From assembly GCA_028715965.1 (NCBI GenBank), contig JAQUQS010000006.1:50163-114162 (forward strand): 64,000 nucleotides of DNA, given 5' to 3'. The DNA comes from Candidatus Omnitrophota bacterium (GTDB taxonomy: Bacteria > Omnitrophota > Gorgyraeia > Tantalellales > Tantalellaceae). The notes below the pieces were generated by a model. The model searched no databases. It was given only the letters and a program-made list of their open reading frames with translations, and was not told where the DNA came from. Position 1 is the first letter of the stretch; each line of letters opens with the position of its first letter. Below are positions 45,121-64,000 of this stretch, one piece after another. The translations under genes and the position numbers were made by a program.

Positions 45121-45147
45121 AACCCGTTCACCAGAACGGGCCTATTT
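45121..45147 (-). terminator. rho-independent terminator after tRNA-Leu trailer
   Basis: The minus strand reads gcccgttctggtgaacgggttttttgc. Confidence 0.65.
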
Positions 45148-45289: not shown

Positions 45290-45356
45290 AACGCTACCGG
45301 TCATATTAGCGGGTCATAATTATTCATGGCCGGTCCCGTGGTATCTCACCGGCAAA

Positions 45357-45434: not shown

Positions 45435-45699
45435 ACTGCGTAAAAACCCGAAAATATAAAGAACGAGGATTTCAGGTAAGAAATATTAGCATAGCGGGCA
45501 GGCTTTGTCAACTCAAATGCGCTTATCATGTTATGTATAAGGACCTTACCAAAAAACAGGGGGATGTGCCTATTTTTATCCATATGTCCGGTCGCCGCGG
45601 ACAGAGGACCTTTCGCGTAGAGTATCGGGTAATTGACTCGGATAACTTTTCAGGTATACTTTCTTGTAGATGATGTTAAGGGTGGTGTGAACGGAGTAT

Positions 45700-47187: not shown

Positions 47188-47391
47188 ATTTGGCTCCTTT
47201 TGTGGCATAATATATCATGGATAGAAAGATATATCAATCCGGTTTTTTTTCATGTTCGTGAAAAGTTGCTATCCGGGGGTGAGGCCGGGCACATTGTGGA
47301 ATAAAATAGCTAAATTAACGCTTTTTTATACATTTTTTCCCAAAAAAAACTGTATTTTAGCTTTTAGTGGAGTAAAATTAAGGAGTATGTT

Positions 47392-47790: not shown

Positions 47791-47957
47791 CCGAAGTCCC
47801 TCCCTGGATCAACGAGGAATTTTTAATATATATCAAAGCCAGATTTGACTTTTCACATCTTGTTAGGTATATTAATAAAAAACTTAAAAAGTTAGATTAT
47901 GCCTTTGAATAAGCAAAACTAAGTTTTTATATTTTACGGGACAAAACGGAGGTAGAA

Positions 47958-49091
47958 ATGGAAAAGAGCGATAATACCATCCGGTTCTTTAATATACGCC
48001 CCGAGAATGAAAAACATATATTCAATCTCAAGGTCTTCGGCGATATAAAAAAATACGGGAAGGTCCGTACGGAAGATATGGCGGGTCCCGCTTGTGACGT
48101 AGAAGCGCAGGTTTCCCAATATCTAAAGTCCGCTTTGAGCGAAGGGATAATAAAGGTAGGCGGAGAGGATGGTCCTGCGGCTGTTACATTCATCGCTTCC
48201 GAGAAAAAGATGGTCGGAGTGGGGTTTACCGACACCAGCGCGTATCTTACGGCGATAGATACTTCCGGAGAGATCTCTGACAGCGAAGAAATAGAGATAA
48301 GCAGGATATCCAGGTTAGAGGGGAAGAATAAGGAGATAAAAAGTATAGCCGAGACTATCAGCGCGGCCAGTGTGCTGAGGAGCTCGGGCCTGGATTCTAT
48401 AGGTATAGCCATGCCTGCGCGGTTAATGGAGATCAACCCTAAGGCGGCGCGTATAATGAACCAGGTACTGACAAAAGCGTTCAAGAACAAGATATTCATC
48501 GGGAGAGAGGCTACTGCGGCCGGGTATGGAGAAATGGATTCCAAACGCGAATTCCGGGACAAGAACGTGCTGTCGATGTATACCGATGCCGGAGACGGGG
48601 CGATGATAAAAGGAGAGAATATTTTCGAAGCGGATTCCGCCTCGCAGGGTAATCTGGCGTATCTGAGCCCGTGGAACCAGTTCAGCATAGTCGCTACAGC
48701 CAAAGAACTGGTGTCAAAAGGCGTAGGTACCGAGATAGTTAACCTGGTCAAGGGGAACATAGATGACATCTCCCTGGAAGTTATACTTCAGGCCGCCGAC
48801 AATAAGGACGAATTGGCGGACGATCTCGTGAAAAGGGCCGCTTTAGCTCTTGGCGTAAGGGTAGCTTACCTCGTGAATATGTTCAACACGGATGTCGTTA
48901 TTCTGAGCGGGGGTACAGAAAGAAGAGAAGGCGGATTTCTGGGGTACGTCGAAGAAGGCGCGAAAAAATTCTATCTTAAAGAAGTATCCGGCAAGGTCAG
49001 TATGGTGCCAGGTATTTTGGGCAAGAAAGCGGTGTCAATAGGCGCGGCATTACTTTGCCGGAGACAACTATTCATGGAGGTTGGGGTATGA
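47958..49091 (+). CDS. ROK family protein (sugar kinase / regulator)
   Basis: ROK motifs include VGVGFTDTSAYLTAIDTSGE (ATP-binding beta-hairpin) and VAYLVNMFNTDVVILSGG. Confidence 0.7.
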   Translation: MEKSDNTIRFFNIRPENEKHIFNLKVFGDIKKYGKVRTEDMAGPACDVEAQVSQYLKSALSEGIIKVGGEDGPAAVTFIASEKKMVGVGFTDTSAYLTAIDTSGEISDSEEIEISRISRLEGKNKEIKSIAETISAASVLRSSGLDSIGIAMPARLMEINPKAARIMNQVLTKAFKNKIFIGREATAAGYGEMDSKREFRDKNVLSMYTDAGDGAMIKGENIFEADSASQGNLAYLSPWNQFSIVATAKELVSKGVGTEIVNLVKGNIDDISLEVILQAADNKDELADDLVKRAALALGVRVAYLVNMFNTDVVILSGGTERREGGFLGYVEEGAKKFYLKEVSGKVSMVPGILGKKAVSIGAALLCRRQLFMEVGV

Positions 49092-49447
49092 AGAAGAACT
49101 CACGCACGGAAAAAACATGTATCATATGCGGAAAGCCGTTCGTACCGAACAAGTACAGGCCGAACCAGAGCGTATGTTCAAGCCTGGAATGTCAGTATCA
49201 GCGGCAACTGCAGAACATGAAGGTCTGGAGAGAGAAGAACCCCAATTATTTCAAGTACAAAGAATCTCAGGATAAATCGTGGAAACAGGCCTGTCGGGAG
49301 CGTTCCCTGGAGTGGAGGAAGAAGCATACGGAATATCTGCAGCTTTACAGGGAAGCTAATAAGGAAAGGCATCGGGAATACATGAGGGATTACATGAGGC
49401 AATACAGGCAGAAGAAAAGACATGACAGGGAAGAACCCGAAGGATAG
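49088..49447 (+). CDS. small basic zinc-ribbon protein, unknown function
   Basis: The ATG at 49088 overlaps the ROK stop (ATGA). A CIICG ... CSSLEC motif forms a CxxC-x17-CxxxC Zn-ribbon-like cluster, followed by a Lys/Arg/Tyr-rich tail. Confidence 0.45.
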   Translation: MKKNSRTEKTCIICGKPFVPNKYRPNQSVCSSLECQYQRQLQNMKVWREKNPNYFKYKESQDKSWKQACRERSLEWRKKHTEYLQLYREANKERHREYMRDYMRQYRQKKRHDREEPEG

Positions 49448-49524: not shown

Positions 49525-52500
49525 TTGGTAAGACACGACTTGGCTGATAACTCGGGGATGAAAGATAGAATAAGGAGAGGGATGAGGCGTCTCCTTATAT
49601 CTGTTGTCGTAACGCAGATGACATTTTCCCCCTTTACCTTCGCGTGGTCCCAGGATAAGGCCGCTTTTTCCGATGAGGAAAAGGACAAGATGAGAGAAGA
49701 TGCCATGGCGGAAGCCATGCGCAGGCTCAAGGTCCGTGAAGCTGAGGAAAAAGAAGCCGTTGCTGAAGCCAGGAAAAGGTTGGAAGAAAAAGCCAAACAG
49801 GATGCTGTCCTGGGAGCGGCGAATGAATTTGTGCTCAAGGCTACCCAGGCGTTGAACGAAAAGGATTTCCGGAACGCTAGAAAATACGCCAAAGCCGCCC
49901 TGGAAATAGCCCCGGACCTCGCTCAGGCGGAAGAACTCCTGAAGATGGTGGATTTCGCGGAACTGGAATATGAACCGGGGCAACGGGAACTATTCAGGAA
50001 AGAACGGACTACAGGCAAGGACGCCGCACAAGAGGAAGAAGGATCATCCGAGCGGAGCGCAGAGATATCCGCGAGCCTCAAGGCCGCGGGAGCGTACCTG
50101 GCGCAAGGGGACACCAGAAGGGCCCGGGCAGCCGCAAGAGCTGTTCTTGCCGAGGATGACAAGAACAAACAGGCCCAGCTACTGCTTGCCAGGACGTATG
50201 TGGCGGAAAAAAGATCGGCACGTCCTGTTGTGCCCGCCGGCAAAACCTCTGCAGGAAGCTCGCAAAATACTACCAAACAGACCATTGACAGTTATCTTTC
50301 CAGGGCTAAAGCCAGCCTGGAACGGAACGAATTATACGCGGCCAGGATATTCGCGGAAAAGGCCTATCAGCTTGACAGCATGGATCCTGATGTGGACAAC
50401 GTTATTTCCCGGATAGCCTCGGCGGAGCAGGAGTATGCAGCCGCGGAAGAGAGGCTGCGCCGTGAGGCTGAAGAGAAAAAAAGAGCTGAGGAAGAAGAAG
50501 CCAGGAGAAGGGATGAAGAAGAAAGGCTTGCCAGGGAAAGGACTAGCAGGATAGAAGAACTTCTCGACCAGGCGGACAGACATATAGAGGAAAACAATTT
50601 TATCCGGGCAAGGAAAGCTGCAGATGATCTCAGGGGCATGGGAGAAACAGGCACGGCTGATTCTCTTTATGGCAAGATCCAGGACGCTGAGCTTATATAT
50701 AAGGAAGAAAAAGCGATCGCGGAAAAAGCCGAACGCGTAAAAAAGTTCGTACAGGAAGGTGAAAAGGCCTTGTCTTCAGGCGACCTGGAACTTGCGCGTA
50801 AATACGCGGATGAGGCGTTAGGGGAAGAAGGCGGGGATGGTACAGCTGAGGATCTTTCCGCCCGGATTGACAAGGCGAAAAAGGAAGTGGAGGCGGCGGA
50901 AGCTCTCCGCAGGGCGGAAAGAGTGGCGGCGGCCCTTGACCAGGCGCGTAAAGAGCTGGAAAATAACGGTTTCGAAAAAGCGCGTATATATGTGCGGGAA
51001 GCCCTTCAGCTTGAGAGCGGGAACGAAACCGCCCAAAAACTCCTGAAGGAGATATACCTGGGAGAAGAGGAGTATCGCGCTGAAAGAGAACGGAAAAAGA
51101 GGCAGGCGGAGGAAGAGGAAAGGAACAGGCTAGAAGCGTTGAAAAAGGCCCAGCAGGAGCGGGAACTTGAGCAGAGAAAGGAACGGGTAGCATGGTATCT
51201 TGAGCAGGCCGCGGAAAAGAACAAAGATAGAGAGTTCGACCGGGCCAGGGAGTACGTGAAGAAAGCCCTTACAATAGATCCGACCAGCGAAAAAGCCAAG
51301 AAGACCGTCAGGGTAATAGACGCGGACGAAGAAGAGTATATAAATGAGTTGCGACAAAGGAAGAAGGTCTCGGAGGAAAGGAAGAAAGAGGAGGAAGAGG
51401 CACGCGCCAGGGAAGAAGAGGCGGCCAGAAAGAGGGAACTGGAAGAGGCCAGGAAGCGTAAAGAGATCCAGGACCTGGAAAGAACGACGAGAGTAAATGA
51501 CCTTCTCGAAAAAGCGGAATTGGCGCTGGACGGCAAGGATTTCAGCGCTGCGCGTGAATATGTGAATAAAGCCCTTACCCTTGAAGGCAATAACGTTAAA
51601 GCAATAAGCGCGATGCAGGGCATAAACAGCGCTGAAAGGGAATATGAGGCTAATAAACTGAGGCGGCAGGAAGAACTTAACAAACAGCAGAAAGAGGAGA
51701 AAGCCGCCGCGGAAACAGCCCGTATAGCGATGGAAGAACAGCTAAAACGCGAAGCTCAGCCGGGCGTCAGTGAATATATCGACAAGGCGGAGGAGGAGTT
51801 GTCCCGGGGGAATTATGAGGAGGCTAGGGTATATGCCCGGAAAGCGATAGGAGCTGACCCCAACAATGTTGTGGCTCACAGGCTGATCACACGTTCTTAT
51901 ATGGAAGAGAAGAAGGGTGTGCTGGATGATCCCCGGCAGGAAGAGAAAGCGCCTGAAGTTCAGGAAAAGCCGGCATCTGAGGGTAAAGCGGGATCTTCCG
52001 CGATAGACAATGAACTTGTAGCGGCGCGCGAAAAAATGGCGGAAGGCGATTTTTCGGGAGCCAGGACACACGCGCGGAAAGTCCTCAGCGTTGATAGCAA
52101 TAACCTGGAGGCGCAGTCCATAATGACCACTTCGTATTTGAGGGAAAGAGAAAAAATACGGGGAAAGGACACGGTTCGCGCCCTGAAAAATAAAGAAGAA
52201 GCCGCTCGACCTTCATCGCGGGAAATAAAGAGCGTTATGGATGAAGCCATAGCGGCTCTTAACGAGAACGAATTCGAGAAGGCAATGGGCCTTGCTGAGA
52301 AAGCTCGTCAGATGGATCCCTCCAACGAGGAAACGAAGACCCTTATCGAGCAGATAGGGCAGTTACGGGCGTCCTATGAAAGGGACGTGAAAGCGAAAGA
52401 GCAGGCCGAAGCGGAAAGCGAGAAACAAAAGGAAGAACGGGAAGCCAGAGCGAGAGAAGAACAGGAAGCCAGAGCGAGAGAAGAACAGGATGCCAGGGCG

Positions 52501-55500
52501 AGAGAAGAACAGGAAGCCAGGGTAAGGGAAGAACAGGAAGCCAGGGCGAGGGAAGAAAAAGAAGCAAAGGGATTTGAGAAAAGGATAACCGGATATCTTG
52601 ACAAGGCCGAAAGGTCCTTGGAGGAACAGGATTTCAGCAAGGCGCGAAGCTATGCTGAGAAGGCACTGGAACTGGCCGGGAGTGACGAGCGGGCCAGGGA
52701 TATGATAGATGCCATCGACTTGGCGCAGAGAACATACGCGGAGGAAGAGCGGAAGCGTAAAGAGGCCGAAGAAGCGGCGCGTAAAGCCCGGGAAGAAGAG
52801 GCCAGAAGGTCGGAAAAAGAACGGGCCCGTGAAAAGGCACTGGAAAGCATGTCCTATTTCAAGACGGCGAGCGATTTGATGGGGCAGGGTAAATTCGATG
52901 AGGCCCGCAAGAACATATATCTCGCGTTCAACATACCCGAAGACAGCCTTCAGGCAAAAATATTACTTTCGGAGTATGATTTCCACGACAAGAACGGGAA
53001 GAAATTCACTTCCATGAAGGAGATCAGGGAGGGTTCCCTTTCCAGTATTGACGCGGAGGAACGCAGCAAGAAAGAGATCGAAGAAGCGGCGCGTAAGGCC
53101 GAAGAAGAGGAAAAGGCACGGGAAAGAGAGCTCCGTGAACGCGAGGAAAAGATAACCGGGTATCTGGACAGGGCCAGGGGATATCTTGAAAAAGGAAGCT
53201 TTGACCGGGCGAGAGGTTACGCGGAAAATGCGCTGAAAGTCGACGAGAGCGACGAGCGGGCCAGGGAAATGATAAATGCCATAGACTCGGCGGAGAGAAC
53301 ATACGCGGAGGAAGAACGGAAGCGTAAAGAGGCCGAAGAGGCCGAACGCAAGGCCAGGCAGGAAGCGGCGGCCAGGGAAAAGGAAGCGCGCGAAGCGGCC
53401 GAGCGCGAGAAAAAGATAACCGGGTACCTGGACAGGGCCAGAGGATATCTTGAAAAGGACAGCTTCGGACGGGCGAGGAGTTACGCGGAAAATGCACTGA
53501 AAGTCGACGGGAACGACGAGCGGGCCAGGGAAATGATAGATGCCATAGACTCGGCGGAGAGAACATACGCGGAGGAAGAGCGGAAGCGTAAAGAGGCCGA
53601 AGAGGCCGAACGCAAAGCCAGGCAGGAAGCGGCGGCCAGGGAAAAAGAAGAAAGAGAAGCCGCTAAAGCCGCTGAGAAAAGCATGGCGTATTTCAAAAAA
53701 GCGAGTGATATGCTTGACAGGGGAAGGTATGACCAGGCGCGTAAGTACGTGGATATAGCGTTCAACATACCCGAAGACAGCGCCCAGGCAAGGATAATAT
53801 TGTCCGAGTATGAGTTCCTGGACAAAAATGGTGTCCAGATCACTACGATACAAGGCATAAGGGAAGGATCGTTGTCCAAGATCGAAGAAGCGGAAGCGAC
53901 CACGGCCGCGGGACGTCTGGAAGAAAAGGTGCAGGCTGAGAGCGTTGATCCGGGCGTCGACGCATCCGCGGAAAGGTCTGAAGCCGACCAGGAAAAGATT
54001 AATAACTATCTCGCAAAGGCCAGGGGATATCTGGACCAGGGGAATTGTGCGAAAGCAAGAGCGATGATGGACAAGGCATCCAGGCTCGGGGCCGCGGGGA
54101 CAGATGCTGATATTTTAAGGATCGCCATCGAGAACGCCGAGCGGAAAGAACGCGAGCGTCTTGTTGATGAGAAGGCCGCGCAATACGCCGAAAAAGCCGA
54201 GAAAGCCCTGGACAGGAACAGGTTCGACGAGGCCGAGAACTATGTCCAAAAAGCCTTGGAGCTCAAGGAAGGGGACGAAGCGCTTAACGGCCTGCTGACC
54301 AGGATAAGCTCCAGGAAACAAGAGCATGAAGCCGAGATGCGGATGACCAAGGAGGAAGAAGAAGCCAGGAAACAGGCTGAAGAGGCTGTAAGGGCCAGGG
54401 AAAAAGAAGAGGCCAGGAGGGAAAAAGCCCGACAGCAAGCAGATAAGGATATAGCAAAAGCACAGGAATTCTTTGACGCGGGGGATTACGGGCAGGCCAG
54501 ACATTATCTGTACCAGGTAAAAGACTCTGTGCCGGATGATTCCCGGGCGAATGAGATGTTGACGGAGATAGACAAGGCCGAGATGTTCGGCAAACGCGAG
54601 AAATTGGATGATATAAGACGGGAAAAACTGGAATTGTCCATGAAAGAGCCGGACGGCGACCCGATGAAGGAACATAACGAGCCCAAGGGTTGGATGGACC
54701 AGATGACTGGTATGTTCGAGAAGAGAACAGATGGGCCGCGTAACGATACGTTGAACGAATCCCATGAGTACACGATTGATGAGTGCGTTAACGCGTCCCT
54801 CAACGCCAACCAGAGAGTAGTTGTCGCTGATAAACAGGTCAAACTGGCCGAGATGAGGTTGTGGGAGACCAGGCGGGAATTGCTTCCGTCAGTTACCGGT
54901 AAGATCGAAAGGTCGTACGGTAAAATAGGCCAGGGGTCCTCGGACAGGCATTACCAGGGTGAAAAATATCAGGTAGAACTTAAGCAGACATTATGGGATG
55001 GGTTCGGGACATGGTTCAAGGTAAAACAGTCGCAGACAAATCTTGAGATAACCATGCTTGAAAGGGGAAAGATAGAGAACGAGGTGGTAGAGACCACGAA
55101 GAAGGCTTACTATAACCTGGACAAATCCATCAAGGCATTCGACCTGCAGGAAAAATTCAACGGAAAGGTCTCGGAGATCCATGAATTTACCGAGAAAGCC
55201 TATGAGCGAGAACTCATCCCGAAAGTGGAATACCTGAAGGTCAAGGGACAGAAAATGCAGTCAGATTTCCAGAAAGATTCAGCGAAGGAAGACGTCAGGC
55301 TGGCCGAAATGATATTGCTCCAGGCTATGGATATGGACTCGGACAAGCATATAATGATAAAGCCGGTAAGGCGCCCCGGGGAATGGTTGACCATTGGTCT
55401 GGAGAATTGTTACAGTTTGGCGTACGCGAACAGGCCCGATTTCAAGATAAAGGAAAAGACGATAGAATATTATGAGTTCGAAAGAAAGATGATGAAAGCA

Positions 55501-56193
55501 AAAGGATGGCCTAAGTTCGAGTTCAACGGTTCGTTCGGGCAGTCCGTGGAAACATACCAGCCCACATCCAGCGGGGGAGAACAGCGCGGATTGGCCCCTG
55601 AATGGTATGCCGGCGTTAAAGCCAGCTTGCCTATGTGGGGGAACACCCTTGAGTACAACTACGTAAGGGAGAAATGGGCGCCGACCGTCTCATCGTTCAG
55701 GGGCACCGAAAGCGCCACAAGTTATTTCTCGTTCAAGCTCCTTGACGACCTGGCGTATTTCTCGAACCTGCAAGAATCCCAGGTAGGGTTTGAAAGCGCC
55801 AAATATGAATATCTTAAGGCCAAAAAGGATGTTACGGTCGAAGTTAAAGAGGCGTATTTCAGCTATAAGAAGGCGTTACTGCAAATGGAGGTCGCCGAGG
55901 CCAGGATAGAACATCAGAAAATGTATGTAAAGACGGTAGAGGAAAGGATGCGGTACGGGGAGACCCTGGAGCCGTCACGTATACTTGAAGAATATGAAAA
56001 ATTATCGACTGAGGAATACAGCCAAGTCGATAGCGATTCGAACTATTATAAGGCCCTGGTTGACCTTAATAAGGCTATAGGTGTATCGGAATATTTCAAG
56101 CCCGAGTATGAGGATATGGAATACGAAGAGTGGAAGAAGGCCACCAGGTATGCTGAACTTGATCTGGAAATGCCTGAGGAACAGAAGGAATAG
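49525..56193 (+). CDS. giant (2222-aa) secreted protein: ~1700 aa of alternating TPR-like pairs and ER/K-rich charged helices fused to a C-terminal TolC/OprM-type outer-membrane efflux (OEP) domain
   Basis: The signal peptide is MRRLLISVVVTQMTFSPFTFAW. At least 15 units of the form ..(F/Y)..AR.YA.KAL..(D)P....A..L follow, each followed by E/R/K-rich segments (EEERKRKEAEEAARKAREEEARR). The C-terminal 480 aa carry the duplicated OEP signature (TIDECVNASLNANQRVVVADKQVKLAE..LLPSVTG; LTIGLENCYSLAYANRPDFKIKEKTIEYYEFE) and end YYKALVDLNKAIG. Confidence 0.8.
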   Translation: MVRHDLADNSGMKDRIRRGMRRLLISVVVTQMTFSPFTFAWSQDKAAFSDEEKDKMREDAMAEAMRRLKVREAEEKEAVAEARKRLEEKAKQDAVLGAANEFVLKATQALNEKDFRNARKYAKAALEIAPDLAQAEELLKMVDFAELEYEPGQRELFRKERTTGKDAAQEEEGSSERSAEISASLKAAGAYLAQGDTRRARAAARAVLAEDDKNKQAQLLLARTYVAEKRSARPVVPAGKTSAGSSQNTTKQTIDSYLSRAKASLERNELYAARIFAEKAYQLDSMDPDVDNVISRIASAEQEYAAAEERLRREAEEKKRAEEEEARRRDEEERLARERTSRIEELLDQADRHIEENNFIRARKAADDLRGMGETGTADSLYGKIQDAELIYKEEKAIAEKAERVKKFVQEGEKALSSGDLELARKYADEALGEEGGDGTAEDLSARIDKAKKEVEAAEALRRAERVAAALDQARKELENNGFEKARIYVREALQLESGNETAQKLLKEIYLGEEEYRAERERKKRQAEEEERNRLEALKKAQQERELEQRKERVAWYLEQAAEKNKDREFDRAREYVKKALTIDPTSEKAKKTVRVIDADEEEYINELRQRKKVSEERKKEEEEARAREEEAARKRELEEARKRKEIQDLERTTRVNDLLEKAELALDGKDFSAAREYVNKALTLEGNNVKAISAMQGINSAEREYEANKLRRQEELNKQQKEEKAAAETARIAMEEQLKREAQPGVSEYIDKAEEELSRGNYEEARVYARKAIGADPNNVVAHRLITRSYMEEKKGVLDDPRQEEKAPEVQEKPASEGKAGSSAIDNELVAAREKMAEGDFSGARTHARKVLSVDSNNLEAQSIMTTSYLREREKIRGKDTVRALKNKEEAARPSSREIKSVMDEAIAALNENEFEKAMGLAEKARQMDPSNEETKTLIEQIGQLRASYERDVKAKEQAEAESEKQKEEREARAREEQEARAREEQDARAREEQEARVREEQEARAREEKEAKGFEKRITGYLDKAERSLEEQDFSKARSYAEKALELAGSDERARDMIDAIDLAQRTYAEEERKRKEAEEAARKAREEEARRSEKERAREKALESMSYFKTASDLMGQGKFDEARKNIYLAFNIPEDSLQAKILLSEYDFHDKNGKKFTSMKEIREGSLSSIDAEERSKKEIEEAARKAEEEEKARERELREREEKITGYLDRARGYLEKGSFDRARGYAENALKVDESDERAREMINAIDSAERTYAEEERKRKEAEEAERKARQEAAAREKEAREAAEREKKITGYLDRARGYLEKDSFGRARSYAENALKVDGNDERAREMIDAIDSAERTYAEEERKRKEAEEAERKARQEAAAREKEEREAAKAAEKSMAYFKKASDMLDRGRYDQARKYVDIAFNIPEDSAQARIILSEYEFLDKNGVQITTIQGIREGSLSKIEEAEATTAAGRLEEKVQAESVDPGVDASAERSEADQEKINNYLAKARGYLDQGNCAKARAMMDKASRLGAAGTDADILRIAIENAERKERERLVDEKAAQYAEKAEKALDRNRFDEAENYVQKALELKEGDEALNGLLTRISSRKQEHEAEMRMTKEEEEARKQAEEAVRAREKEEARREKARQQADKDIAKAQEFFDAGDYGQARHYLYQVKDSVPDDSRANEMLTEIDKAEMFGKREKLDDIRREKLELSMKEPDGDPMKEHNEPKGWMDQMTGMFEKRTDGPRNDTLNESHEYTIDECVNASLNANQRVVVADKQVKLAEMRLWETRRELLPSVTGKIERSYGKIGQGSSDRHYQGEKYQVELKQTLWDGFGTWFKVKQSQTNLEITMLERGKIENEVVETTKKAYYNLDKSIKAFDLQEKFNGKVSEIHEFTEKAYERELIPKVEYLKVKGQKMQSDFQKDSAKEDVRLAEMILLQAMDMDSDKHIMIKPVRRPGEWLTIGLENCYSLAYANRPDFKIKEKTIEYYEFERKMMKAKGWPKFEFNGSFGQSVETYQPTSSGGEQRGLAPEWYAGVKASLPMWGNTLEYNYVREKWAPTVSSFRGTESATSYFSFKLLDDLAYFSNLQESQVGFESAKYEYLKAKKDVTVEVKEAYFSYKKALLQMEVAEARIEHQKMYVKTVEERMRYGETLEPSRILEEYEKLSTEEYSQVDSDSNYYKALVDLNKAIGVSEYFKPEYEDMEYEEWKKATRYAELDLEMPEEQKE
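52432..52556 (+). repeat. in-frame 24-nt tandem repeat x5 (REEQEARA)n inside giant gene
   Basis: The unit gaagaacaggaagccagRgcgaga is repeated with point differences, encoding REEQEARAREEQEARAREEQDARAREEQEARVREEQEARAREE. Confidence 0.85.
52560..53900 (+). repeat. near-identical intragenic module repeats (264-nt/88-aa units at 53151 and 53415; ~480-nt module at 52570-53060 re-used at 53415-53890)
   Basis: Long stretches are over 90% identical at the DNA level, for example gagcgggccagggaaatgataRatgccatagactcggcggagagaacatacgcggaggaagaRcggaagcgtaaagaggccgaagaggccgaacgcaaRgccaggcaggaagcggcggccagggaaaa. Confidence 0.85.
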
Positions 56194-56227
56194 AAGCTTT
56201 AAAGTTTGTGTATGACATTCCAAGATT

Positions 56228-57523
56228 TTGCGGAGGGGTATTATGGATGAAGATAAAAAAGATATGTTCTTCGAGGAAGATCCCGAAAATGGCGCGCGGG
56301 AAGAAAAGGATCCCGTAGAAGAAGGCGAGGACGACCTTTTTGCCGATGAGCCGGAACAGGGGAACACCGAAGAAACGCTCATGGAAGAGGCGGATGCCCC
56401 GAAAAAACGCTGGAAGTTCAAGTTTTCCGGGATAAAGAAGAACTATATGTGGATAATTGTCGGGCTTCTCGTATTGAGCTTCGTGCTGATAAAGACCGTT
56501 GGCAAGATATCGCAGATATTCATGGGGGAGAAAAAAGAGGTCAAGGAAATGGTCGAATTCCTGGAGACCATGCCGGTCAAGGTATACAAGGTTAAGAAAA
56601 TGGATTTCAAGGATACGTTGCCGGCAATGGGCAGGATAGAAGGGTTCAAGGAGATAGACCTTATGTTCGATGGGAAAGGGATCCTGGAAAGTTTCAACTT
56701 CGAGGAAGGAGAGCGGATACTGGAGGGGGATATTATCGCCAGTCTTGACAACAAGGACGCGATCCTGAAACTGAAATACGCGGGCCTTGAAATGGAAAAG
56801 GCGCAGAAGCTTTATGAAATAGGCGCTGTTGAGAAAATGGTGCTGGACCAGAAGAAGCTCGAGTACGAATCCGCCAAGAACGATCTCGAGAAAACAAGCA
56901 TATACGCCCCGACCGACGGCTATCTTGCCAGCAAGGAAAAGCATACTGGCGCTTTTATCGGGCCTACGGATAAGATAGGGACGTTCGTTGATTATAGTGA
57001 GGTATATGCCGCGTTCGACATAATCGAGGAGGATTCCCCGAAGATCGACCTGGGCCAGACCGCGGAAGTGTTCCTGGACGCTTATCCCGGGGTGTCGTAC
57101 AAGGGCACAATAGACATGATATCCCCCGTAATAGAGGGCAGGACCAGGACGCAGAAAGCAAAAATTGAATTACAGAACGAAGAGAACAAGATGAAACCCG
57201 GCATGTTCGCCCGGGCCATCATAAATACGTACGAGAAGAAAGACGCGCTGATCATACCGTCGTCTTCTTTCAAGAAGAAAGAGAATAAATATTTCGTATA
57301 TATCGTTCATCCGGATGAAGACGCGGAGGGAGAAGCTAAGGAAGATGAAAGCAAGATGGGGACGGTAGAGGAGCGCGAGATAACAATAGAGTACCTGACA
57401 CATGACGCGGCTGAAATATCAAAAGGGTTGAGCGAGGGCGAGCTGGTGATCAGGGAAATACACCAGGATTATAAAGACAAGGATAAGGTCGAGATAACCG
57501 AAGTACAGGAAACAATGTTCTAA
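56228..57523 (+). CDS. membrane fusion protein (HlyD/AcrA family periplasmic adaptor) with acidic cytoplasmic N-terminal extension
   Basis: An acidic N-terminal extension of about 60 aa precedes a single TM helix (YMWIIVGLLVLSFVLI), alpha-hairpin/coiled-coil, lipoyl and beta-barrel regions (IIASLDNKDAILKLKYA..IYAPTDGYL). Confidence 0.8.
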   Translation: MRRGIMDEDKKDMFFEEDPENGAREEKDPVEEGEDDLFADEPEQGNTEETLMEEADAPKKRWKFKFSGIKKNYMWIIVGLLVLSFVLIKTVGKISQIFMGEKKEVKEMVEFLETMPVKVYKVKKMDFKDTLPAMGRIEGFKEIDLMFDGKGILESFNFEEGERILEGDIIASLDNKDAILKLKYAGLEMEKAQKLYEIGAVEKMVLDQKKLEYESAKNDLEKTSIYAPTDGYLASKEKHTGAFIGPTDKIGTFVDYSEVYAAFDIIEEDSPKIDLGQTAEVFLDAYPGVSYKGTIDMISPVIEGRTRTQKAKIELQNEENKMKPGMFARAIINTYEKKDALIIPSSSFKKKENKYFVYIVHPDEDAEGEAKEDESKMGTVEEREITIEYLTHDAAEISKGLSEGELVIREIHQDYKDKDKVEITEVQETMF

Positions 57524-57653
57524 CGCGCGGACCGGACGAGGATGTATCGGGCAGCCCTGACACGTCTTTTCCCGTTCCGTGGCGATATTGTCCATAACAG
57601 GGCACAGAACACGGGGGCCCTTAACTTACCTGTAGACAGTTGCGAGCATAAAT

Positions 57654-60600
57654 ATGGGATTACCTGAATTTTCGACAAAAAAGCCAGTCACAACCGTGAT
57701 GATATTCATAGGTGTGATGCTGTTCGGCTTCATTTCGCTTACGAAGCTCCCTCAGGAATTGTTCCCGCCGATCACATATCCGCAATTAACGGTTTTTACG
57801 GGATACGCCAATGCTGCTCCTGAAGAGGTCGAGACACTCCTGACGAAGCCTATAGAGGAGGGTGTCGGTACCGTTAGCGGGCTCAAGATGATAAGGTCCA
57901 TATCCAAGGAAGGTGTATCGCTCGTAATAGCGGAGTTCGATTGGGACCAGAACATGGATTTCGCTTCATTGAGGACGAGGGAAAAGGTCGACCTTGTTAA
58001 GGCCAGGCTTCCCCGGGATTCCACCGAACCGCTTGTTGTGCCTTTTAACCCGTTCGAGATGCCTATAATGACGATAAGCGTTACCGGGAACAGGAGCCCT
58101 GTTGAGTTAAGGCGCATCGCGAAGGATACCATAAAAGAAGAGCTCGAAAAGATTGATGGCGTTGCCTCCGCGTCGGTCGAAGGCGGGCTCGAAAGGGAGA
58201 TACTTGTTGCCGTTGACCAGGGAAAGATGAACGCTATGGGCGTGTCGATACTGGATGTGTCGGACGCCATAACCAATTCCAACTTGAATTATCCGGCGGG
58301 CACCATAAAGGAAAGTTTTTATGAATACCTTATAAGGACCCTGGGGGAATTTTCTACGATAGACGAGATCCCGGAAGTCGTGGTGAAGAACAACGACGAA
58401 GAGCCGGAACAGAGAGAGATGCCCTATGACAAGAAATTGAAAGAAAGAAAATCGAGTTCGTCGCCTAAAATGGTGGCCATAAAAGATATAGCTGAGATCA
58501 AGGATACGTTCAAGGAAAGAAGCAGCTATTCCAGGTATAATGGCAAGGAGAACGTATCGGTGTCTATCCAGAAGCAGGCGCAGGCTAATACCATGCAGGT
58601 AATAAACCGTATCCGACAATCTTTCGATCGCCTGCATAAGATATTGCCGAAAGATGTAAAGCTCCAGGTCATACATGACCAGTCCATATTCATCAAGGAC
58701 GCGATAAACGGGGTAAGGGACGCGGCGTTCCAAGGTGGTATACTGGCCTTCCTGGTGCTTCTGGTGTTCTTGAGGAATGTCAAGTCCTCCGCCATAGTTA
58801 CTTTGAGCATACCTATATCCATCATGATCGTTTTCACGTTCATGTATTTCGGCGGGCTTTCGATAAACATGATGTCGCTGGGCGGGTTGGCGTTAGGTGT
58901 GGGTATGCTGGTCGATAACGCGATAGTCGTAATGGAGAACATCTTCCGCCATCGGGAGATGGGGAAACCACCGGAACAAGCCGCTACGGAAGGGGCTGAA
59001 GAGGTTTCCAACGCGATAGTAGCATCCACCCTTACTACGATAGCGGTTTTTCTTCCTATGGTGTTCGTTGTTGGCGTGGCCGGCCAGCTTTTCAAGGAAT
59101 TGGCGTTCACCGTGACCTTTTCACTGATAGGGTCATTATGGGTCGCATTGACGCTGATCCCTCTTTTAAGCTGTAAGCTCGGCGGGGACAGCAAAGAAGC
59201 GGCAAAAGGCGCCGCGGCGTTCGCCGGCGGAGAGAAATGGAAACAGATGCTTACGCGGTACGAAAAGATGCTGCGGTTCTTCCTGGATCATAAGGGTATA
59301 GGCTTATTCTGTGTGTTTCTCATATTCCTGGCAAGTTTTGGGCTTTTCGGCGGGCTTGAAAAAGAATTGATGCCAAAAACCGACCAGGGACAGTTCGTGA
59401 TAAAGGTCGATATGCCGGTAGGGACCAAGTTGGACGATACGGATAAGGTCGTCAGGCTGATAGAGGACCAGGCCATGAAGGTCCCGGAAGAGGAATCCGT
59501 GAGTTCGGTGATCGGGTCCACTTCAGGCGATTCGGCGAAGGACCTCATAACAAGGCTGGGGTCGCATCAGGGAGAGATAATTGTGAACCTTAAGGAGAAA
59601 AGAAAAACGACCACGGGGGATGTCGTGGTGGCGCTTAAGGAAAAAGTTTCCAGGCTGAGGGAGGCGAAGGCGGCCAACATAGAGTTTTCCATGCAACAAG
59701 GCATGATCTCGGGGGCATTTGGATCTTCAGGAAAGCCCATCATGGTAGAGATCAAGGGCGAAAAAATGGAGGTAATGGAAAGCATCGCCAAAGAAGTCGA
59801 AAAAAGGCTTGAGAAGATAGACGGTATTTTCGGGATAGAGGATGATATCCCGGAACCTTCCCCGGAAATAAGGGTGAATATCAACAAAGATAAAGCCGCC
59901 TTGTATAACATTTCCGTGGTGGATCTGGCAAGGATAGCTCAAATGGTCCTCAGGGGATATATATCGTCACAGTTCAAGGAAAAAGGGCGAGAGGTCGATA
60001 TCAGGGTGCGGATGAGCGAGAAAGACAGGGATTCTTACGCCAAGCTCCACAGGATAAAGATAAGCGCGCCCGGAGGAACACAGGTCCTGCTGTCTAAACT
60101 TGCCGAATTCACGCGTGGCAAGGGCCCCAGCGAGATAAAAAGGCTGGGGCAGGAGCGTACCATGACGGTCTCGGCCAACGTTATCGGCCGAAAACTTTCG
60201 GATGTTTTCGGCGAGGTAGAAAAGAGCCTGAAAGCCATGCAAAAACCGAGTGGGTATGTCGTGAAACTTACGGGTGAATCCGAGGAAATGAAAAAGTCCT
60301 TTAACAGCCTCAGGTTCGCGCTTATACTTTCCATTGTTCTCGTATACATGATAATGGCAGCGCAATTCGAGTCGTTGTCGCAGCCGTTGATCATACTTTT
60401 CACTGTGCCGTTATCGCTCATAGGCGTCCTTGTCGCGCTTTACGTAACGAATACATCTATAAGCGTGGTCGCTCTTCTTGGGGTCATAATGCTGGGCGGT
60501 ATAGTCGTCAATAACGGTATAGTCCTGATCGATTACACGAACATCCTTATGGCCCAGGGAAAAGAGATGAAAGAAGCCGTAATTGAAGCCAGCCTTGCCA

Positions 60601-60818
60601 GGTTAAGGCCGATAATCATGACCGCGCTCACGACGGTACTTGGTCTTTTCCCGATGGCCCTGGCTGTCGGAAGAGGGTCTGAACTCAGGGCTCCCATGGC
60701 GGTAAGTGTAATGGGCGGGCTTATGGTGTCCACTTTCCTTACCCTTGTGGTGATCCCTTCCATATTTGTTCTTGAGCATGAAATAAGGAACAGGATACGG
60801 AAAGTATCAGTGAAATGA
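57654..60818 (+). CDS. RND family efflux transporter (AcrB/MdtB-like), subunit 1
   Basis: The 1054-aa product has 12 TM helices in two halves with large periplasmic loops. Its N-terminus is KKPVTTVMIFIGVMLFGFISLTKLP.ELFP and it contains the conserved motif GLA.G.GMLVDNAIVV.ENI. Confidence 0.9.
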   Translation: MGLPEFSTKKPVTTVMIFIGVMLFGFISLTKLPQELFPPITYPQLTVFTGYANAAPEEVETLLTKPIEEGVGTVSGLKMIRSISKEGVSLVIAEFDWDQNMDFASLRTREKVDLVKARLPRDSTEPLVVPFNPFEMPIMTISVTGNRSPVELRRIAKDTIKEELEKIDGVASASVEGGLEREILVAVDQGKMNAMGVSILDVSDAITNSNLNYPAGTIKESFYEYLIRTLGEFSTIDEIPEVVVKNNDEEPEQREMPYDKKLKERKSSSSPKMVAIKDIAEIKDTFKERSSYSRYNGKENVSVSIQKQAQANTMQVINRIRQSFDRLHKILPKDVKLQVIHDQSIFIKDAINGVRDAAFQGGILAFLVLLVFLRNVKSSAIVTLSIPISIMIVFTFMYFGGLSINMMSLGGLALGVGMLVDNAIVVMENIFRHREMGKPPEQAATEGAEEVSNAIVASTLTTIAVFLPMVFVVGVAGQLFKELAFTVTFSLIGSLWVALTLIPLLSCKLGGDSKEAAKGAAAFAGGEKWKQMLTRYEKMLRFFLDHKGIGLFCVFLIFLASFGLFGGLEKELMPKTDQGQFVIKVDMPVGTKLDDTDKVVRLIEDQAMKVPEEESVSSVIGSTSGDSAKDLITRLGSHQGEIIVNLKEKRKTTTGDVVVALKEKVSRLREAKAANIEFSMQQGMISGAFGSSGKPIMVEIKGEKMEVMESIAKEVEKRLEKIDGIFGIEDDIPEPSPEIRVNINKDKAALYNISVVDLARIAQMVLRGYISSQFKEKGREVDIRVRMSEKDRDSYAKLHRIKISAPGGTQVLLSKLAEFTRGKGPSEIKRLGQERTMTVSANVIGRKLSDVFGEVEKSLKAMQKPSGYVVKLTGESEEMKKSFNSLRFALILSIVLVYMIMAAQFESLSQPLIILFTVPLSLIGVLVALYVTNTSISVVALLGVIMLGGIVVNNGIVLIDYTNILMAQGKEMKEAVIEASLARLRPIIMTALTTVLGLFPMALAVGRGSELRAPMAVSVMGGLMVSTFLTLVVIPSIFVLEHEIRNRIRKVSVK

Positions 60819-60882
60819 GCGGCGGGATGATCTCTACGTGTCTCTGGCGGCCATGTCCCCGCGCTCATGGAAAGATAGAAAT

Positions 60883-63800
60883 ATGAGCCTATCCAGTTTT
60901 TCCATAAAAAAACCTATTACCACGATAATGATATTTACCGCCCTGTGCCTTATGGGGGTCATATCGCTTACACGTCTTCCGGTAGAGCTTTACCCGGATG
61001 TCTCCTTCGGCCAGATAAGTATCATCATGTACATACGCGGCGGCATACCTCCGACCGAGGTCGAGACAATGGTGACCAAACCGATAGAGGAGGCAATAAG
61101 TACGGTCTCTCACCTGGAGCGTGTCCTGTCCATATCCAAGGAAGGGGAAGCTACGGTCGTTCTGAGTTTTGACCGTGGCATAGACATGCAGCTTGCCGCG
61201 ATGGAGGTTCGGGAAAAGTTCGCCAAAGTGAAAGAAAAGATGCCCAAAGAGGCGGAAAAACCCATCATCGCGCAGTTCTCCCAGACAGACGTGCCGATAG
61301 TCATATTCGCGGTCACGAGCAGGAAGAAGACAACGGAGGAATTGCGCAAGATCGTCGACGAGAATATCAAGGAGAGGATAAAAAGGATAAACGGCGTGGC
61401 CAATGTCGAGGTCGGCGGGGGCAGGGAGCGCAAGATAATAATAGAAGCGGATGAACAGGCGCTTAAAAGATACGCGGTTTCGCTTAACAGGCTTATATCC
61501 GCGCTGGGCGCGAACAATCTTAACCTGTTAACGGGAGAACTCGAGAAAGAGGACAAAAAGGTCCTTATAAGGGCCATCGGCCAATATGTTACCGTTGAGG
61601 ATATCAAGTCAACGGTCGTATTGTCCAGGCCCGACGGTTCAACGGTCAGGGTGCGTGATCTTGCCGATGTAAAGGATTCCTATCTGGAGCCGCAGACGTA
61701 TGCCAGGATAAATATCAAGCCCATTGTGTCCGTGTATGTCCAGAAGGAATCCAAGGCCAATACCATAAAGGTATCGCAGGCCATCCTGGAGGGTGTCGAA
61801 GAGTTGAGGACGATCCTGCCGGATGATATAGAGCTCATTGTTACAAAGAACCAGGCAGAGTTCATCCGGACGTCCATATCTAACTTGAAAGACTCACTTT
61901 TAAGGGGCGCCGCGATGATCATTTTCATACTCATGCTTTTCATGGGTAAACTCGGGAGGCACGCGGCTTATATAGTTCCGGTAGGACTGGGCGTGTCCGT
62001 TTTCGCGCCTCCGCTGTTCCTCTATGTACTGCTGATCGGACTTGTGGGGTTTCTCTTATTGTTCAAAAGTTACCGGCCCATATTCATTGTAGCGGTCTCG
62101 ATCCCTATCTCGCTCATAGTAACGTTCGGTCTTATGGATATGTCGAACATGTTCGTGCCCGCGATAATGGACCTCACGATAAACTTCATAACCCTTTTCG
62201 GGCTCGCGCTGGGCGTCGGGATGCTGGTCGATAATTCCATAGTTGTTTTCGAGAATATCGTGACAAAGAGCGAACAAGGCCTGGACCAGGTTGAGGCGGC
62301 GATAAATGGAAGTACTGAGATGAATGTGGTAATATTCGCATCCACCCTGACAACGGTCATCGTGTTCCTCCCGATGCTTTTTGTGAGTAAATCCATGAGC
62401 CTTTTGTACGGGGGCGTGGCATGGACCGTTACTTTTTCCCTGTGTGTGTCGCTGTTCGTCGCGCTGATGATAGTGCCGCTCATGAGCTCCAGGGTAAAGG
62501 TGGCGGAAAAAGGAGGTATGTCCCAGGAGGTCAAGGAAGGGTTCCTCAAACCATTCTACGCGTTGCAGGAAAAAGCGCTTTTTTTCGTGTTCCGCAGGCG
62601 TTTTATGATAATAGGAATAGCCACGTTCCTGTTCTTCGTGGCCATGTTCATTTATGGAAAACTGGGCAAAGAATACCTGGGGACCACGGAACAGAACAAG
62701 TTCACGGTATTCATAGAGCTGCCCACGGGAGCAAAGCTCGATTCGAGTGATGATATCGTAAGGAATGTGGAGGAGATATTGCGAGAAGTGCCGGAAGTGA
62801 AGAGCTTTACCGCCAGGGTAGAAGGCTGGTCGAGCAAGGTGTATGTCGACCTGGTCGGGCTGAAATCCAGGAAAAGATCGGTGGCGGAGGTCATAGAAAG
62901 CCTGCGGCCCAAGGTGGAGAGGCTGCAGCCGGCGTTCATATATTTCGAGGAAGAACAGGAAGTCGGGACAAAGGAAATAATCCTTAACGTTTTTGGGCAT
63001 GATTACGAGATATTAAGGGAAATAGCCATAGCGATAACCACAAGGATGGGTCGTGTCCCTTATTTTACGGACACCAAGATACGTATGCGTGAAGGAAGAC
63101 CGGAACTAGATCTCAGGATAGATAAGCAAAAAAGCGCGCATTTCAACTTTAACACCAAAGATGTGGCTGATATGGTGCACGCTAAGGTCCGCGGTGTAAG
63201 GGCAACGATGTTCCATACCAGGTCCGCCGAGGTGGAAACGATCGTCAGGATGAAGGAAAAGGACCGGCGTACCGTCAAGGATATACATTCCCTTTCGGTT
63301 TCCAAGGCTGGGGACGACAGGGTCGCGCTTGACCAGATAGTGGATTTTGAGTATGGCCTTGGTCCGAGTGAGATCTGGAGGAAAGACAGGGCCCGGATGA
63401 TACAGGTGAGCGCGAACGTTGGGGAACTATCATTGGGGCAGGCCGCGCAAATATTGGACAAGGAACTTGTGGACCTGAAGCTCCCGGAAGATTATTTTTA
63501 TGAGATAGGAGGGGATTACCCTACTCTGATGAAGACCCAGAGTGAATTCGGGATGACGATCGTGGTCATCATAGTCCTGATCTACCTGGTTCTGGCGTCC
63601 ATATTCGAGTCTTACAGGCAGCCGTTCATAATAATGGTGACCGTGATGCTCGCTACCATAGGCGCGATAGGGGCTTTGTATATGACAAAGACCACCGTGG
63701 GTATGGGGGCCCTGATCGGGATGATGATGCTTGCGGGTATAGTTGTGAACAACGGTATTATACTGGTCGAACATGCTAATGAGCTTAAGGTCCAGAGGCG

Positions 63801-64000
63801 GAATATGTTCAGGATACTTATACAGGCCGCCAGGGACCGGTTAAGACCTGTTCTTATGACCACCGGGACCACCATATTCGGGCTTCTGCCCATGGCGTTG
63901 GACAAAAGTGAGGGGTCCAATCTATGGAATCCCCTGGCTATAACGGTTATTGGCGGGCTTTTGTTCTCTACGCCGCTCACGCTTGTCATGGTCCCGGCCA
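60883..64000 (+). CDS. RND family efflux transporter (AcrB/MdtC-like), subunit 2, 3' end beyond window
   Basis: The ATG is at 60883 (MSLSSFSIKKPITTIMIFTALCLMGVISLTRLPVELYPD). The frame stays open to the window end with RND topology and the motif GLALGVGMLVDNSIVVFENI. It is not listed in the ORF track because no stop occurs within the window. Confidence 0.85.
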   Translation, partial: MSLSSFSIKKPITTIMIFTALCLMGVISLTRLPVELYPDVSFGQISIIMYIRGGIPPTEVETMVTKPIEEAISTVSHLERVLSISKEGEATVVLSFDRGIDMQLAAMEVREKFAKVKEKMPKEAEKPIIAQFSQTDVPIVIFAVTSRKKTTEELRKIVDENIKERIKRINGVANVEVGGGRERKIIIEADEQALKRYAVSLNRLISALGANNLNLLTGELEKEDKKVLIRAIGQYVTVEDIKSTVVLSRPDGSTVRVRDLADVKDSYLEPQTYARINIKPIVSVYVQKESKANTIKVSQAILEGVEELRTILPDDIELIVTKNQAEFIRTSISNLKDSLLRGAAMIIFILMLFMGKLGRHAAYIVPVGLGVSVFAPPLFLYVLLIGLVGFLLLFKSYRPIFIVAVSIPISLIVTFGLMDMSNMFVPAIMDLTINFITLFGLALGVGMLVDNSIVVFENIVTKSEQGLDQVEAAINGSTEMNVVIFASTLTTVIVFLPMLFVSKSMSLLYGGVAWTVTFSLCVSLFVALMIVPLMSSRVKVAEKGGMSQEVKEGFLKPFYALQEKALFFVFRRRFMIIGIATFLFFVAMFIYGKLGKEYLGTTEQNKFTVFIELPTGAKLDSSDDIVRNVEEILREVPEVKSFTARVEGWSSKVYVDLVGLKSRKRSVAEVIESLRPKVERLQPAFIYFEEEQEVGTKEIILNVFGHDYEILREIAIAITTRMGRVPYFTDTKIRMREGRPELDLRIDKQKSAHFNFNTKDVADMVHAKVRGVRATMFHTRSAEVETIVRMKEKDRRTVKDIHSLSVSKAGDDRVALDQIVDFEYGLGPSEIWRKDRARMIQVSANVGELSLGQAAQILDKELVDLKLPEDYFYEIGGDYPTLMKTQSEFGMTIVVIIVLIYLVLASIFESYRQPFIIMVTVMLATIGAIGALYMTKTTVGMGALIGMMMLAGIVVNNGIILVEHANELKVQRRNMFRILIQAARDRLRPVLMTTGTTIFGLLPMALDKSEGSNLWNPLAITVIGGLLFSTPLTLVMVPA

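Follow-up and report, generated by a model that had tools for sequence, protein, structure and literature searches.

An extended TolC-family protein with a long arm of spaced single-TPR units heads an RND pump block in Omnitrophota

The window analysed here, a stretch of 64,000 nucleotides (nt) from a Candidatus Omnitrophota bacterium (assembly GCA_028715965.1, contig JAQUQS010000006.1, positions 50,163 to 114,162), carries towards its right-hand end a gene for a TolC-family outer-membrane factor (OMF) in which the channel domain is preceded by a long array of helical repeats, hereafter called the arm. Genes for a membrane fusion protein (MFP) and two permeases of the resistance-nodulation-division (RND) type, RND1 and RND2, follow on the same strand with gaps of 49 nt (TolC-MFP), 130 nt (MFP-RND1) and 64 nt (RND1-RND2). 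This order, including the exit of the second RND gene from the window, is as described in an earlier note on this DNA, which had been made from the letters alone. The extended gene and the pump genes comprise the following features, identified with the help of open reading frames (ORFs), hidden Markov models (HMMs) and structure prediction.

49582..56193, + strand: extended TolC-family outer-membrane factor gene, 2,203 amino acids (aa) (ORF, Pfam, NCBI annotation)
49582..49644, + strand: Sec-type signal peptide, MRRLLISVVVTQMTFSPFTFA, followed by WSQ (read by eye from the sequence)
49645..54585, + strand: arm of 19 single-TPR three-helix units plus linkers (iterated HMM, alignment A1, linker composition, AlphaFold)
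54586..54774, + strand: linker from the last unit to the channel, motif DP...KxW....G.F.K...YTIDEC (consensus of alignments A2 and A3)
54775..56190, + strand: predicted TolC/OEP domain, approximately 470 aa, H1-H9 and S1-S5 with two 67-residue helices (Pfam, profile, AlphaFold, Foldseek)
55642..55737, + strand: insertion of approximately 32 aa after barrel strand S5, NTLEYNYVREKWAPTVSSFRGTESATSYFSFK (alignments; extra beta-hairpin in AlphaFold)
56243..57523, + strand: RND-type MFP, 426 aa (HlyD_D23, 93.9 bits; TIGR01730 RND_mfp, 174.9 bits, above cut-off)
57654..60818, + strand: RND permease 1, 1,054 aa (ACR_tran, 846 bits; RND_permease_2 subfamily, 714.7 bits, below cut-off)
60883..64000, + strand: RND permease 2, running past the window end, 1,097 aa in the full contig (ACR_tran, 714 bits)

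The frame of the extended gene is open throughout from 49525 to 56193 on the + strand, giving 2,222 codons from a TTG at 49525. An alternative ATG lies at 49555, and the best start is the ATG at 49582, which has AAGGAG ahead of it at the right distance and gives a product of 2,203 aa (49582..56193). This product is 100% identical to a database protein (P0062; NCBI label "TolC family protein") recorded on contig JAQTUB010000005.1 of assembly GCA_028710465.1, a short-read metagenome-assembled genome (MAG) of Candidatus Omnitrophica; the length of 2,222 aa given in the earlier note thus applies to the maximal ORF, but not to the annotated protein. Residue numbers below are given relative to the ATG at 49555 (2,212-aa translation); relative to the annotated start they are lower by 9. 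No lipobox cysteine is present in the signal peptide, so the protein is not a lipoprotein; its N-terminus is of the non-lipidated TolC type rather than the NodT/OprM type, and a lipoprotein OMF was ruled out on this ground. Comparable signal peptides begin all full-length orthologues. That a single gene fuses a long helical-repeat region to a TolC-fold factor, as had been proposed, is borne out by the single open frame, the Pfam OEP match, AlphaFold and Foldseek; the frame is continuous at 54.0-54.8 kb, where a frameshift or assembly join might have separated the two parts, and the OEP domain is not a separate gene.

Pfam OEP (PF02321) matched the C-terminus in two stretches with 97.7 bits (cut-off 22). 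A phmmer search with the C-terminal 497 aa against PDB sequences gave no match; a family profile matched E. coli TolC at 1e-8, together with CmeC and OprM, among PDB sequences, and with a narrower profile (A3) the TolC match was lost and TPR designs alone were returned. AlphaFold, which like all structure models reported here gave a monomer prediction, returned for residues 1480-2212 (58-sequence alignment) a mean pLDDT of 87.9, with the channel mostly above 90. The modelled elements follow each other in the order of TolC (H1, H2, S1, S2, a 67-residue H3, H4, equatorial elements, H6, S4, S5, a 67-residue H7, H8, H9), and Foldseek against PDB retrieved approximately 39 solved OMF chains, among them TolC, ST50, SilC, OprM, OprN, CusC, CmeC, MtrE and VceC, with E values of 6e-19 to 1e-13, TM-scores (target) of 0.62-0.77 and identities of just 11-15%. 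The C-terminal segment is thus predicted to adopt the TolC protomer fold over approximately 470 aa, slightly less than the 480 aa for which this fold had been claimed.

In its two OEP repeats, protomer topology, 67-residue tunnel helices and barrel strands the channel resembles E. coli TolC as well as OprM, CusC, CmeC and SilC, and with TolC it shares the absence of lipidation and the position of its gene next to those of an MFP and an inner-membrane transporter. It departs from solved OMFs in its low identity and in the conserved beta-hairpin of approximately 32 aa inserted after S5, and from known OMFs (approximately 430-500 aa) in the approximately 1,700 extra residues N-terminal of the channel; to our knowledge, every characterised TolC-family channel is compact, with approximately 450-500 residues. 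The inserted stretch, NTLEYNYVREKWAPTVSSFRGTESATSYFSFK, is the most conserved of the family and served as pattern for the genome search described below. As a marker of the arm-bearing clade it was rejected, because it is also found in arm-less relatives from Omnitrophota and Elusimicrobiota. Were the extra hairpin part of the barrel, a trimer with 18 instead of 12 strands would result. The motif of the linker between arm and channel is conserved across the clade, and this segment was modelled at low confidence (pLDDT 47-66).

An iterated HMM built on the protein itself resolved the arm, approximately 1,700 aa long, into 19 units of approximately 45-50 aa each, located between aa 93 and 1677 as follows.

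49831-49965, + strand: first unit
54451-54585, + strand: last unit
49831, 50077, 50296, 50563, 50746, 50935, 51199, 51505, 51778, 52015, + strand: starts of units 1 to 10 (iterated HMM)
52237, 52597, 52858, 53164, 53428, 53692, 54010, 54187, 54451, + strand: starts of units 11 to 19 (iterated HMM)

The unit consensus (alignment A1) reads Y-LxxAxxxLxxxxFxxARxYAxxALxx(D)xxxxxAxxLxxxIxxAE-xY. Each unit, one tetratricopeptide repeat (TPR) with a capping helix, can be aligned with the final repeat and solvating helix of designed CTPR proteins, including CTPR3; in the N-terminal part the Pfam families Fis1_TPR_C (71.6 bits), TPR_19 (48.2 bits) and TPR_2 (37 bits) scored above their cut-offs. The units are spaced 59-120 aa apart and separated by linkers of 14-75 aa. 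Twelve to thirteen of these linkers contain 44-66% Glu, Arg and Lys (ER/K) and 7-19% large hydrophobic residues, and are free of Pro and Gly over most of their length. The other four to five are rich in Pro, Gly and Ser (e.g. aa 220-247, 787-820, 1425-1485 and 1678-1740) and probably act as hinges, so that the array is not strictly uniform. The earlier description of an uninterrupted array of TPR-like helices alternating with charged segments resembling single alpha-helices (SAH) therefore stands as regards the alternation of TPR-like units with SAH-like ER/K helices, but not as regards strict uniformity.

Nine segments, together 349 aa, passed an ad hoc filter for SAH (dense opposite charges at i/i+3-4), and AlphaFold predicts continuous helices for these SAH-like segments with pLDDT 64-95. 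Even at its best, the hydrophobic fraction of their heptad a/d positions does not exceed 0.36, which makes a coiled coil unlikely; a coiled-coil trimeric stalk was ruled out since no heptads are present. A second AlphaFold model, of residues 280-700 from the single sequence, combined a pLDDT of 88.1 with a pTM of 0.36, indicating that local structure is predicted with confidence while the global shape is not fixed. In both models (1480-2212 and 280-700) a helix of 38-81 residues is followed by one of 13-14 residues and again by a long helix, a pattern suggesting that each capping helix extends via the linker and becomes helix one of the unit that follows. Rods of 40-81 residues (approximately 6-12 nm) joined by three-helix knuckles would thus make up the arm. 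Among solved structures none shares its global shape (TM-score 0.12-0.15; local TPR similarity only), and the units are isolated rather than stacked on each other as in a TPR solenoid with a groove, to which TM-scores were likewise 0.12-0.15. Stretched out, the arm would by a rough estimate have a contour of 120-160 nm. Omnitrophota cells are mostly approximately 0.2 µm across (PMC10066038), so that a stretched arm of approximately 100 nm or more would be about half as long as the cell is wide.

In the 2,212-aa translation Pfam recognised OEP and TPR-type families only. It detected no domain for binding peptidoglycan or any other ligand, and specifically no SLH, OmpA-like, LysM, SPOR or AMIN domain. 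None of the other long ORFs of the window contains a TolC-arm unit or an ER/K array of the arm type. Windows of 40 aa with at least 55% Glu/Arg/Lys do occur in ORFs 14693-16318 (+) and 28365-31799 (+), both lacking TolC-arm units.

The elements of the arm have counterparts elsewhere. ER/K single alpha-helices reportedly serve as spacers, for example in myosin VI/X and caldesmon, and the linkers resemble them in length (29-51+ residues), composition (55-66% E/R/K), opposite charges at i/i+4, lack of heptads and prediction as isolated helices; they differ in that many occur in series, run seamlessly into TPR helices at both ends and are predicted to be exported to the periplasm. The unit fits the TPR consensus plus 'solvating' helix found in TPR solenoids (CTPR, Hop/Sti1, OGT, PilF/PilW, BamD), but single TPRs are split here by linkers of 14-75 aa and form no superhelix with a ligand groove. 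OmpM and SlpA combine an SLH domain, a coiled coil and a barrel, and TolA domain II and the TPR protein CpoB belong to the Tol-Pal system. All of these provide a long helical periplasmic extension on or with an envelope machine, and charged spacers and TPR elements recur among them. Compared with OmpM and SlpA, the arm has no SLH or other peptidoglycan-binding domain and no heptads, is far longer and variable, and sits on an efflux channel instead of a porin. Judged by the titles of PDB entries 9v52 and 9tg4, the lipoprotein YbjP is found on TolC, indicating that TolC can carry an accessory partner; unlike YbjP, a separate small lipoprotein, the arm is a covalent giant repeat array.

We next consider the repeats in the arm-coding DNA, which is 66% purine on the coding strand and contains the following elements.

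52432..52565, + strand: 24-nt tandem repeat, 5.6 copies, in perfect frame, encoding (EEQEARAR)n within one ER/K linker
52570-52832, + strand: older copy of the 264-nt module, 70% identity
53137..53663, + strand: duplication of 264 nt in two copies (unit plus linker), 91-93% nt identity, the only recent duplication

Between the two 264-nt copies the units share 87% identity, and with the unit of the older copy they share 62%. All other arm repeats are at most 70% identical at the DNA level, which makes mis-joining during assembly unlikely. The 24-nt repeat is likely a slippage hot spot for arm-length variation. At the protein level, five units reach 62-87% identity, and most are only 24-44% identical to any other unit; that the TPR core consensus is kept at such identities indicates that the units are old and under purifying selection for their fold. 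Orthologues of comparable size occur in independent assemblies from other samples, namely one of 2,223 aa (P0067) and two of approximately 2,100-2,300 aa (L007 and L016; measured from stop to stop). At one further locus (L031, CAYSJU010000014.1) a separate 519-aa ORF with three units stands directly before a 762-aa TolC; this may be a true split of the arm gene, or that MAG may contain a frameshift or a sequencing error.

Orthologues were sought in three ways. A word-seeded search, for which the C-terminal 547 aa served as query, gave 61 proteins of 680-954 aa with one to five N-terminal units and often one unit past the channel; nearly all those with a source name are annotated as Candidatus Omnitrophota/Omnitrophica. 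An exhaustive search of 1.84 billion representative proteins with the 19-unit profile, followed by local classification with the OEP HMM, revealed longer orthologues: eight had 1,498-1,568 aa, several others 1,000-1,300 aa, and P0067, matched in 18 stretches, reached 2,223 aa. Finally, a scan of one genome per species yielded 37 loci, and all members with a taxon-level name belong to Omnitrophota (some records are labelled "uncultured Planctomycetia" by the submitter). The 28 complete ORFs, counted from stop to stop, range from approximately 760 to approximately 2,300 aa with a median of approximately 1,000 aa; 11 exceed 1,300 aa and four exceed 2,000 aa. The gene is no isolated case: dozens of related genomes share the design, with continuous variation in length. 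From the sequences gathered, the extended TolC is the rule in a whole clade of Omnitrophota. The earlier note had called the architecture unfamiliar from characterised efflux systems, and a literature search of incomplete coverage found no paper on extended TolC proteins, in Omnitrophota or elsewhere.

Arm length differs up to approximately tenfold among orthologues, and every orthologue of the close clade keeps at least one unit. Many have one unit C-terminal of the channel, and in L007 3607-10497 and L016 3526-9930 (Ca. Aadella gelida) the channel occupies the middle of the protein and is followed by ten C-terminal units. In a rough neighbour-joining tree of the channel domains, long and short forms are interleaved and near relatives differ by several units (nine units in L008 versus 13 in L043; 1,569 aa in L011 versus 759 aa in L012). 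The two 2,200-aa orthologues P0062 and P0067 are collinear over their C-terminal approximately 1,000 aa, of which approximately 550 aa are arm, with 38.7% identity; identities of 24-47% were too low to assign unit-to-unit orthology among P0062, P0067 and P0063.

In one lineage an array of this kind is found on the adaptor. The MFPs P0064-66 (P0064 being encoded at locus L006, 7923-12704) are 1,593-1,619 aa long and carry approximately 1,190 aa of unit and ER/K array N-terminal of their single membrane helix. They lack a signal peptide, and the upstream sequence leaves no space for one, which places their array in the cytoplasm. The TolC of L006 has 1,498 aa. Among the best 150 matches of the profile search, 28 contain arrays spaced by ER/K linkers, and these include 17 TolC orthologues and the three MFPs. 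As for the remaining eight, three look like N-terminally truncated fragments, and Pfam scans of the other five gave three TPR-only proteins, one without match and one kinase. With 17 TolC proteins and three MFPs out of 28, the spaced array is largely a property of this pump rather than a general building block of the phylum.

The pump genes themselves are of known type. The MFP has an acidic cytoplasmic tail of approximately 70 aa, one transmembrane helix and a periplasmic adaptor. The two permeases are 35% identical to each other. No convincing terminator was found on the + strand between TolC, MFP, RND1 and RND2. As in MdtABC and MuxABC, the order is MFP-RND-RND and the diverged paralogous permeases are kept as a pair across genomes; unlike there, the OMF gene leads the operon and both permeases score higher against MdtC than against MdtB, in all cases far below the NCBIfam cut-offs (RND1, 450 bits to MdtC and 422 to MdtB; RND2, 394 and 326; cut-offs, 1,774 and 1,584). 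Both score best to one and the same NCBIfam subfamily model, again below cut-off, and in sequence the pair looks like an independent duplication. The label MdtBC-like, applied earlier, is thus appropriate for the gene arrangement and not for orthology to MdtB and MdtC. The Asp of transmembrane helix 4 (TM4) in 'MLVDN(A/S)IVV' and the TM11 motif 'RLRP' are kept in both permeases. The TM4 motif lies at aa 417-440 (approximately) of RND1 and aa 446-470 (approximately) of RND2 and reads Asp-Asn, at the position of Asp407-Asp408 in E. coli AcrB; RND2 also appears to have an Asn ('VVNNGIILVEH') at the position of AcrB Lys940. Type I secretion was rejected, as no ABC exporter is present, the partners are RND permeases, and type_I_hlyD scored 31 bits against a cut-off of 208.

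The pump block is conserved as a unit. The order ROK gene, small gene of approximately 120-130 aa, extended TolC, MFP, RND1, RND2 was found in essentially all loci with flanking sequence and is syntenic in more than 25 species-level Omnitrophota genomes, so that the order TolC-MFP-RND-RND, whose conservation the earlier note had proposed to check, is kept in more than 25 related loci. Past the window end, downstream of RND2, a giant ORF follows in six of the seven loci with gene calls (L001, L003, L004, L006, L044 and L046); five of these ORFs have 2,794, 2,972, 8,171, 11,092 and 11,719 aa, and the sixth, cut by the contig end, has at least 2,545 aa. At the seventh (L045), STT3 stands in its place. 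The largest (L004, JAQTUB010000005.1) begins approximately 540 nt past RND2 and is probably an Omnitrophota giant gene of the 'archaeovorin' type; its first 492 aa (L004 25137-26612) gave no Pfam match. An apparent tracking of giant-ORF size by arm length in four loci failed when three more were added, and TolC/giant ORF pairs of 824/8,171 aa, 954/2,972 aa and 2,203/11,719 aa are found. Omnitrophota carry many very long proteins (bioRxiv 10.1101/2023.11.21.568195; 10.64898/2026.06.07.730766), and their giant proteins have many transmembrane regions (West-Roberts et al.). According to a preprint on the giant genes of Omnitrophota, a type II-like secretion locus is conserved upstream of these genes; TolC, RND and efflux are never mentioned in its text.

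The extended TolC is a genuine and conserved variant, apparently not described before, of a known machine, and with moderate confidence we identify it as the OMF of a tripartite RND-type export machine, the arm architecture included. By analogy with the TolC family, one channel would be built from three protomers and dock on an MFP hexamer and an RND trimer, and both ends of the chain would emerge in the periplasm, at the equatorial belt. With the termini at the belt there would be three periplasmic arms per channel, and arms at either end of the chain agree with TolC termini that lie together at the equatorial domain. Export would, going by family membership, be driven by protons and pass from RND via the MFP to TolC, and RND1 and RND2 may form a mixed trimer. 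As for the arms, we tentatively suggest that they are flexible, multivalent protein-binding tentacles or spacers. Such arms would tie the channel laterally into its envelope surroundings (neighbouring pumps, other envelope proteins), would act neither as a fixed-length ruler nor as a radial strut, and would change rapidly in length through duplication and loss of unit-plus-linker modules. The scaffold or docking platform suggested in the earlier note is a possible role. Several points weigh against the tentacle interpretation. The periplasmic location of the arms would follow from TolC topology, the structure models are of monomers, the SAH behaviour of the linkers is predicted, and co-transcription of the four genes is suggested by spacing and synteny. 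The extreme length variation could mean that distal units do nothing, the Pfam scan shows no peptidoglycan- or ligand-binding domain, and with the array of P0064-66 in the cytoplasm a purely periplasmic role cannot explain every occurrence. A more ambitious version, which we regard as doubtful, would make the arms a hitherto unrecognised envelope-organising system of nanobacteria in which three periplasmic tentacles on the 100-nm scale per trimer, joined in some lineages by cytoplasmic MFP tentacles, form a multivalent, cytoskeleton-like mesh that positions the pump and couples it to the neighbouring giant 'archaeovorin'-type protein.

As the main alternative, the arms could reflect weakly constrained repeat growth, with function confined to the channel, perhaps together with the proximal unit and linker, and the rest being a tolerated expansion of slippage-prone, purine-rich modules. 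We consider this possible, if on the unlikely side. It would account for orthologues ranging from approximately 760 to 2,300 aa, for close relatives that differ by several units, for the recent 264-nt duplication and the 5.6-fold 24-nt repeat, for the 66% purine bias of the coding strand, and for the appearance of arrays at either terminus or, on the MFP, in another compartment, in a phylum known for very long proteins. It fits less well with 5-kb frames that have stayed open in several independent lineages, with a TPR core retained among units of 24-44% identity, with the approximately 550 aa of arm that are collinear between two 2,200-aa orthologues, and with a spaced array that is concentrated in this pump instead of being spread over the proteome.

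The remaining explanations are less probable. Arms that link the outer membrane to peptidoglycan or the inner membrane and set their spacing, in the manner of Lpp or of OmpM/SlpA stalks, would be in keeping with their predicted start in the periplasm on an integral outer-membrane protein and with ER/K helices being known rod-like spacers; yet none of the SLH, OmpA-like, LysM, SPOR and AMIN domains was recognised, the array of P0064-66 is cytoplasmic, and a tenfold variation in length is incompatible with a conserved dimension. The length variation, together with a contour of 120-160 nm that far exceeds a periplasm, also makes a ruler or radial strut unlikely, and the C-terminal arms of some orthologues likewise speak against the ruler suggested by the earlier note; we hold a tether or ruler of any kind to be improbable. 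Equally improbable, in our estimate, is a docking platform in which TolC arms, and MFP tail arms in some lineages, recruit the giant protein encoded after RND2. The giant ORF does follow RND2 in six of seven loci, and arms on either side of the inner membrane would suit a polytopic partner, but adjacency is not interaction: TolC and giant-gene lengths show no clean correlation, STT3 replaces the giant gene at one locus, and the N-terminal 492 aa of the giant ORF contain no recognisable domain. That the architecture is an artefact, through mis-assembly, repeat collapse or expansion, or a missed frameshift fusing a TPR gene to TolC, or that the arms are exposed at the cell surface, we regard as highly improbable. 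The short-read MAG source, the repeats inside the gene and the possibly split arm gene at L031 are what an artefact might leave behind, but the frame is continuous, most repeats are at most 70% identical in DNA, the same fusion is found in more than 40 independent assemblies, and the signal peptide heads the arm rather than the OEP domain; surface exposure contradicts the TolC topology reproduced by the model.

The clade routinely adds from hundreds to approximately 1,700 residues of predicted rod-and-knuckle structure at the equatorial termini of the channel and, occasionally, at the cytoplasmic tail of the adaptor. Functional arms would imply that tripartite pumps can be built into larger supramolecular assemblies. 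They would also offer a way to study how the envelope is organised in ultra-small bacteria that are probably predators or parasites and cannot yet be cultured, and, as naturally occurring SAH spacers set in series with single-TPR joints, they would be of interest for protein design. Should the arms mostly represent tolerated expansion, they would be a clean case for how very long proteins arise in Omnitrophota. The position of the pump block directly upstream of giant genes is a context that goes unmentioned in the text of the giant-gene preprint.

Two genes directly upstream belong to the conserved block.

47958..49091, + strand: ROK-family gene, 377 aa, directly upstream of the pump block (Pfam ROK, 43.8 bits)
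49088..49447, + strand: small gene, 119 aa, with N-terminal Cys-x2-Cys ... Cys-x4-Cys and a basic helical tail (sequence)

The start of the small gene overlaps the stop of the ROK gene (ATGA), and its product had no match in Pfam or NCBIfam. NCBIfam matches of the ROK protein to NagC/Mlc were weak and below cut-off; it is possibly a regulator of the NagC/Mlc type, and together with the small gene it may make up a regulator pair for the block that responds to sugars in the manner of NagC/Mlc. At 47845-47873, ahead of the ROK gene, lies a promoter-like site recognised by consensus match. Further upstream, a PilZ gene (45700-46131, +) is followed by YchF (46132-47208, -). The region 39398-47208 is mostly on the - strand and contains a secretin gene (41759-43270, -) surrounded by TPR-like and AAA_22 genes; the region is similar to the type II-like secretion locus that the preprint describes ahead of giant genes in Omnitrophota.

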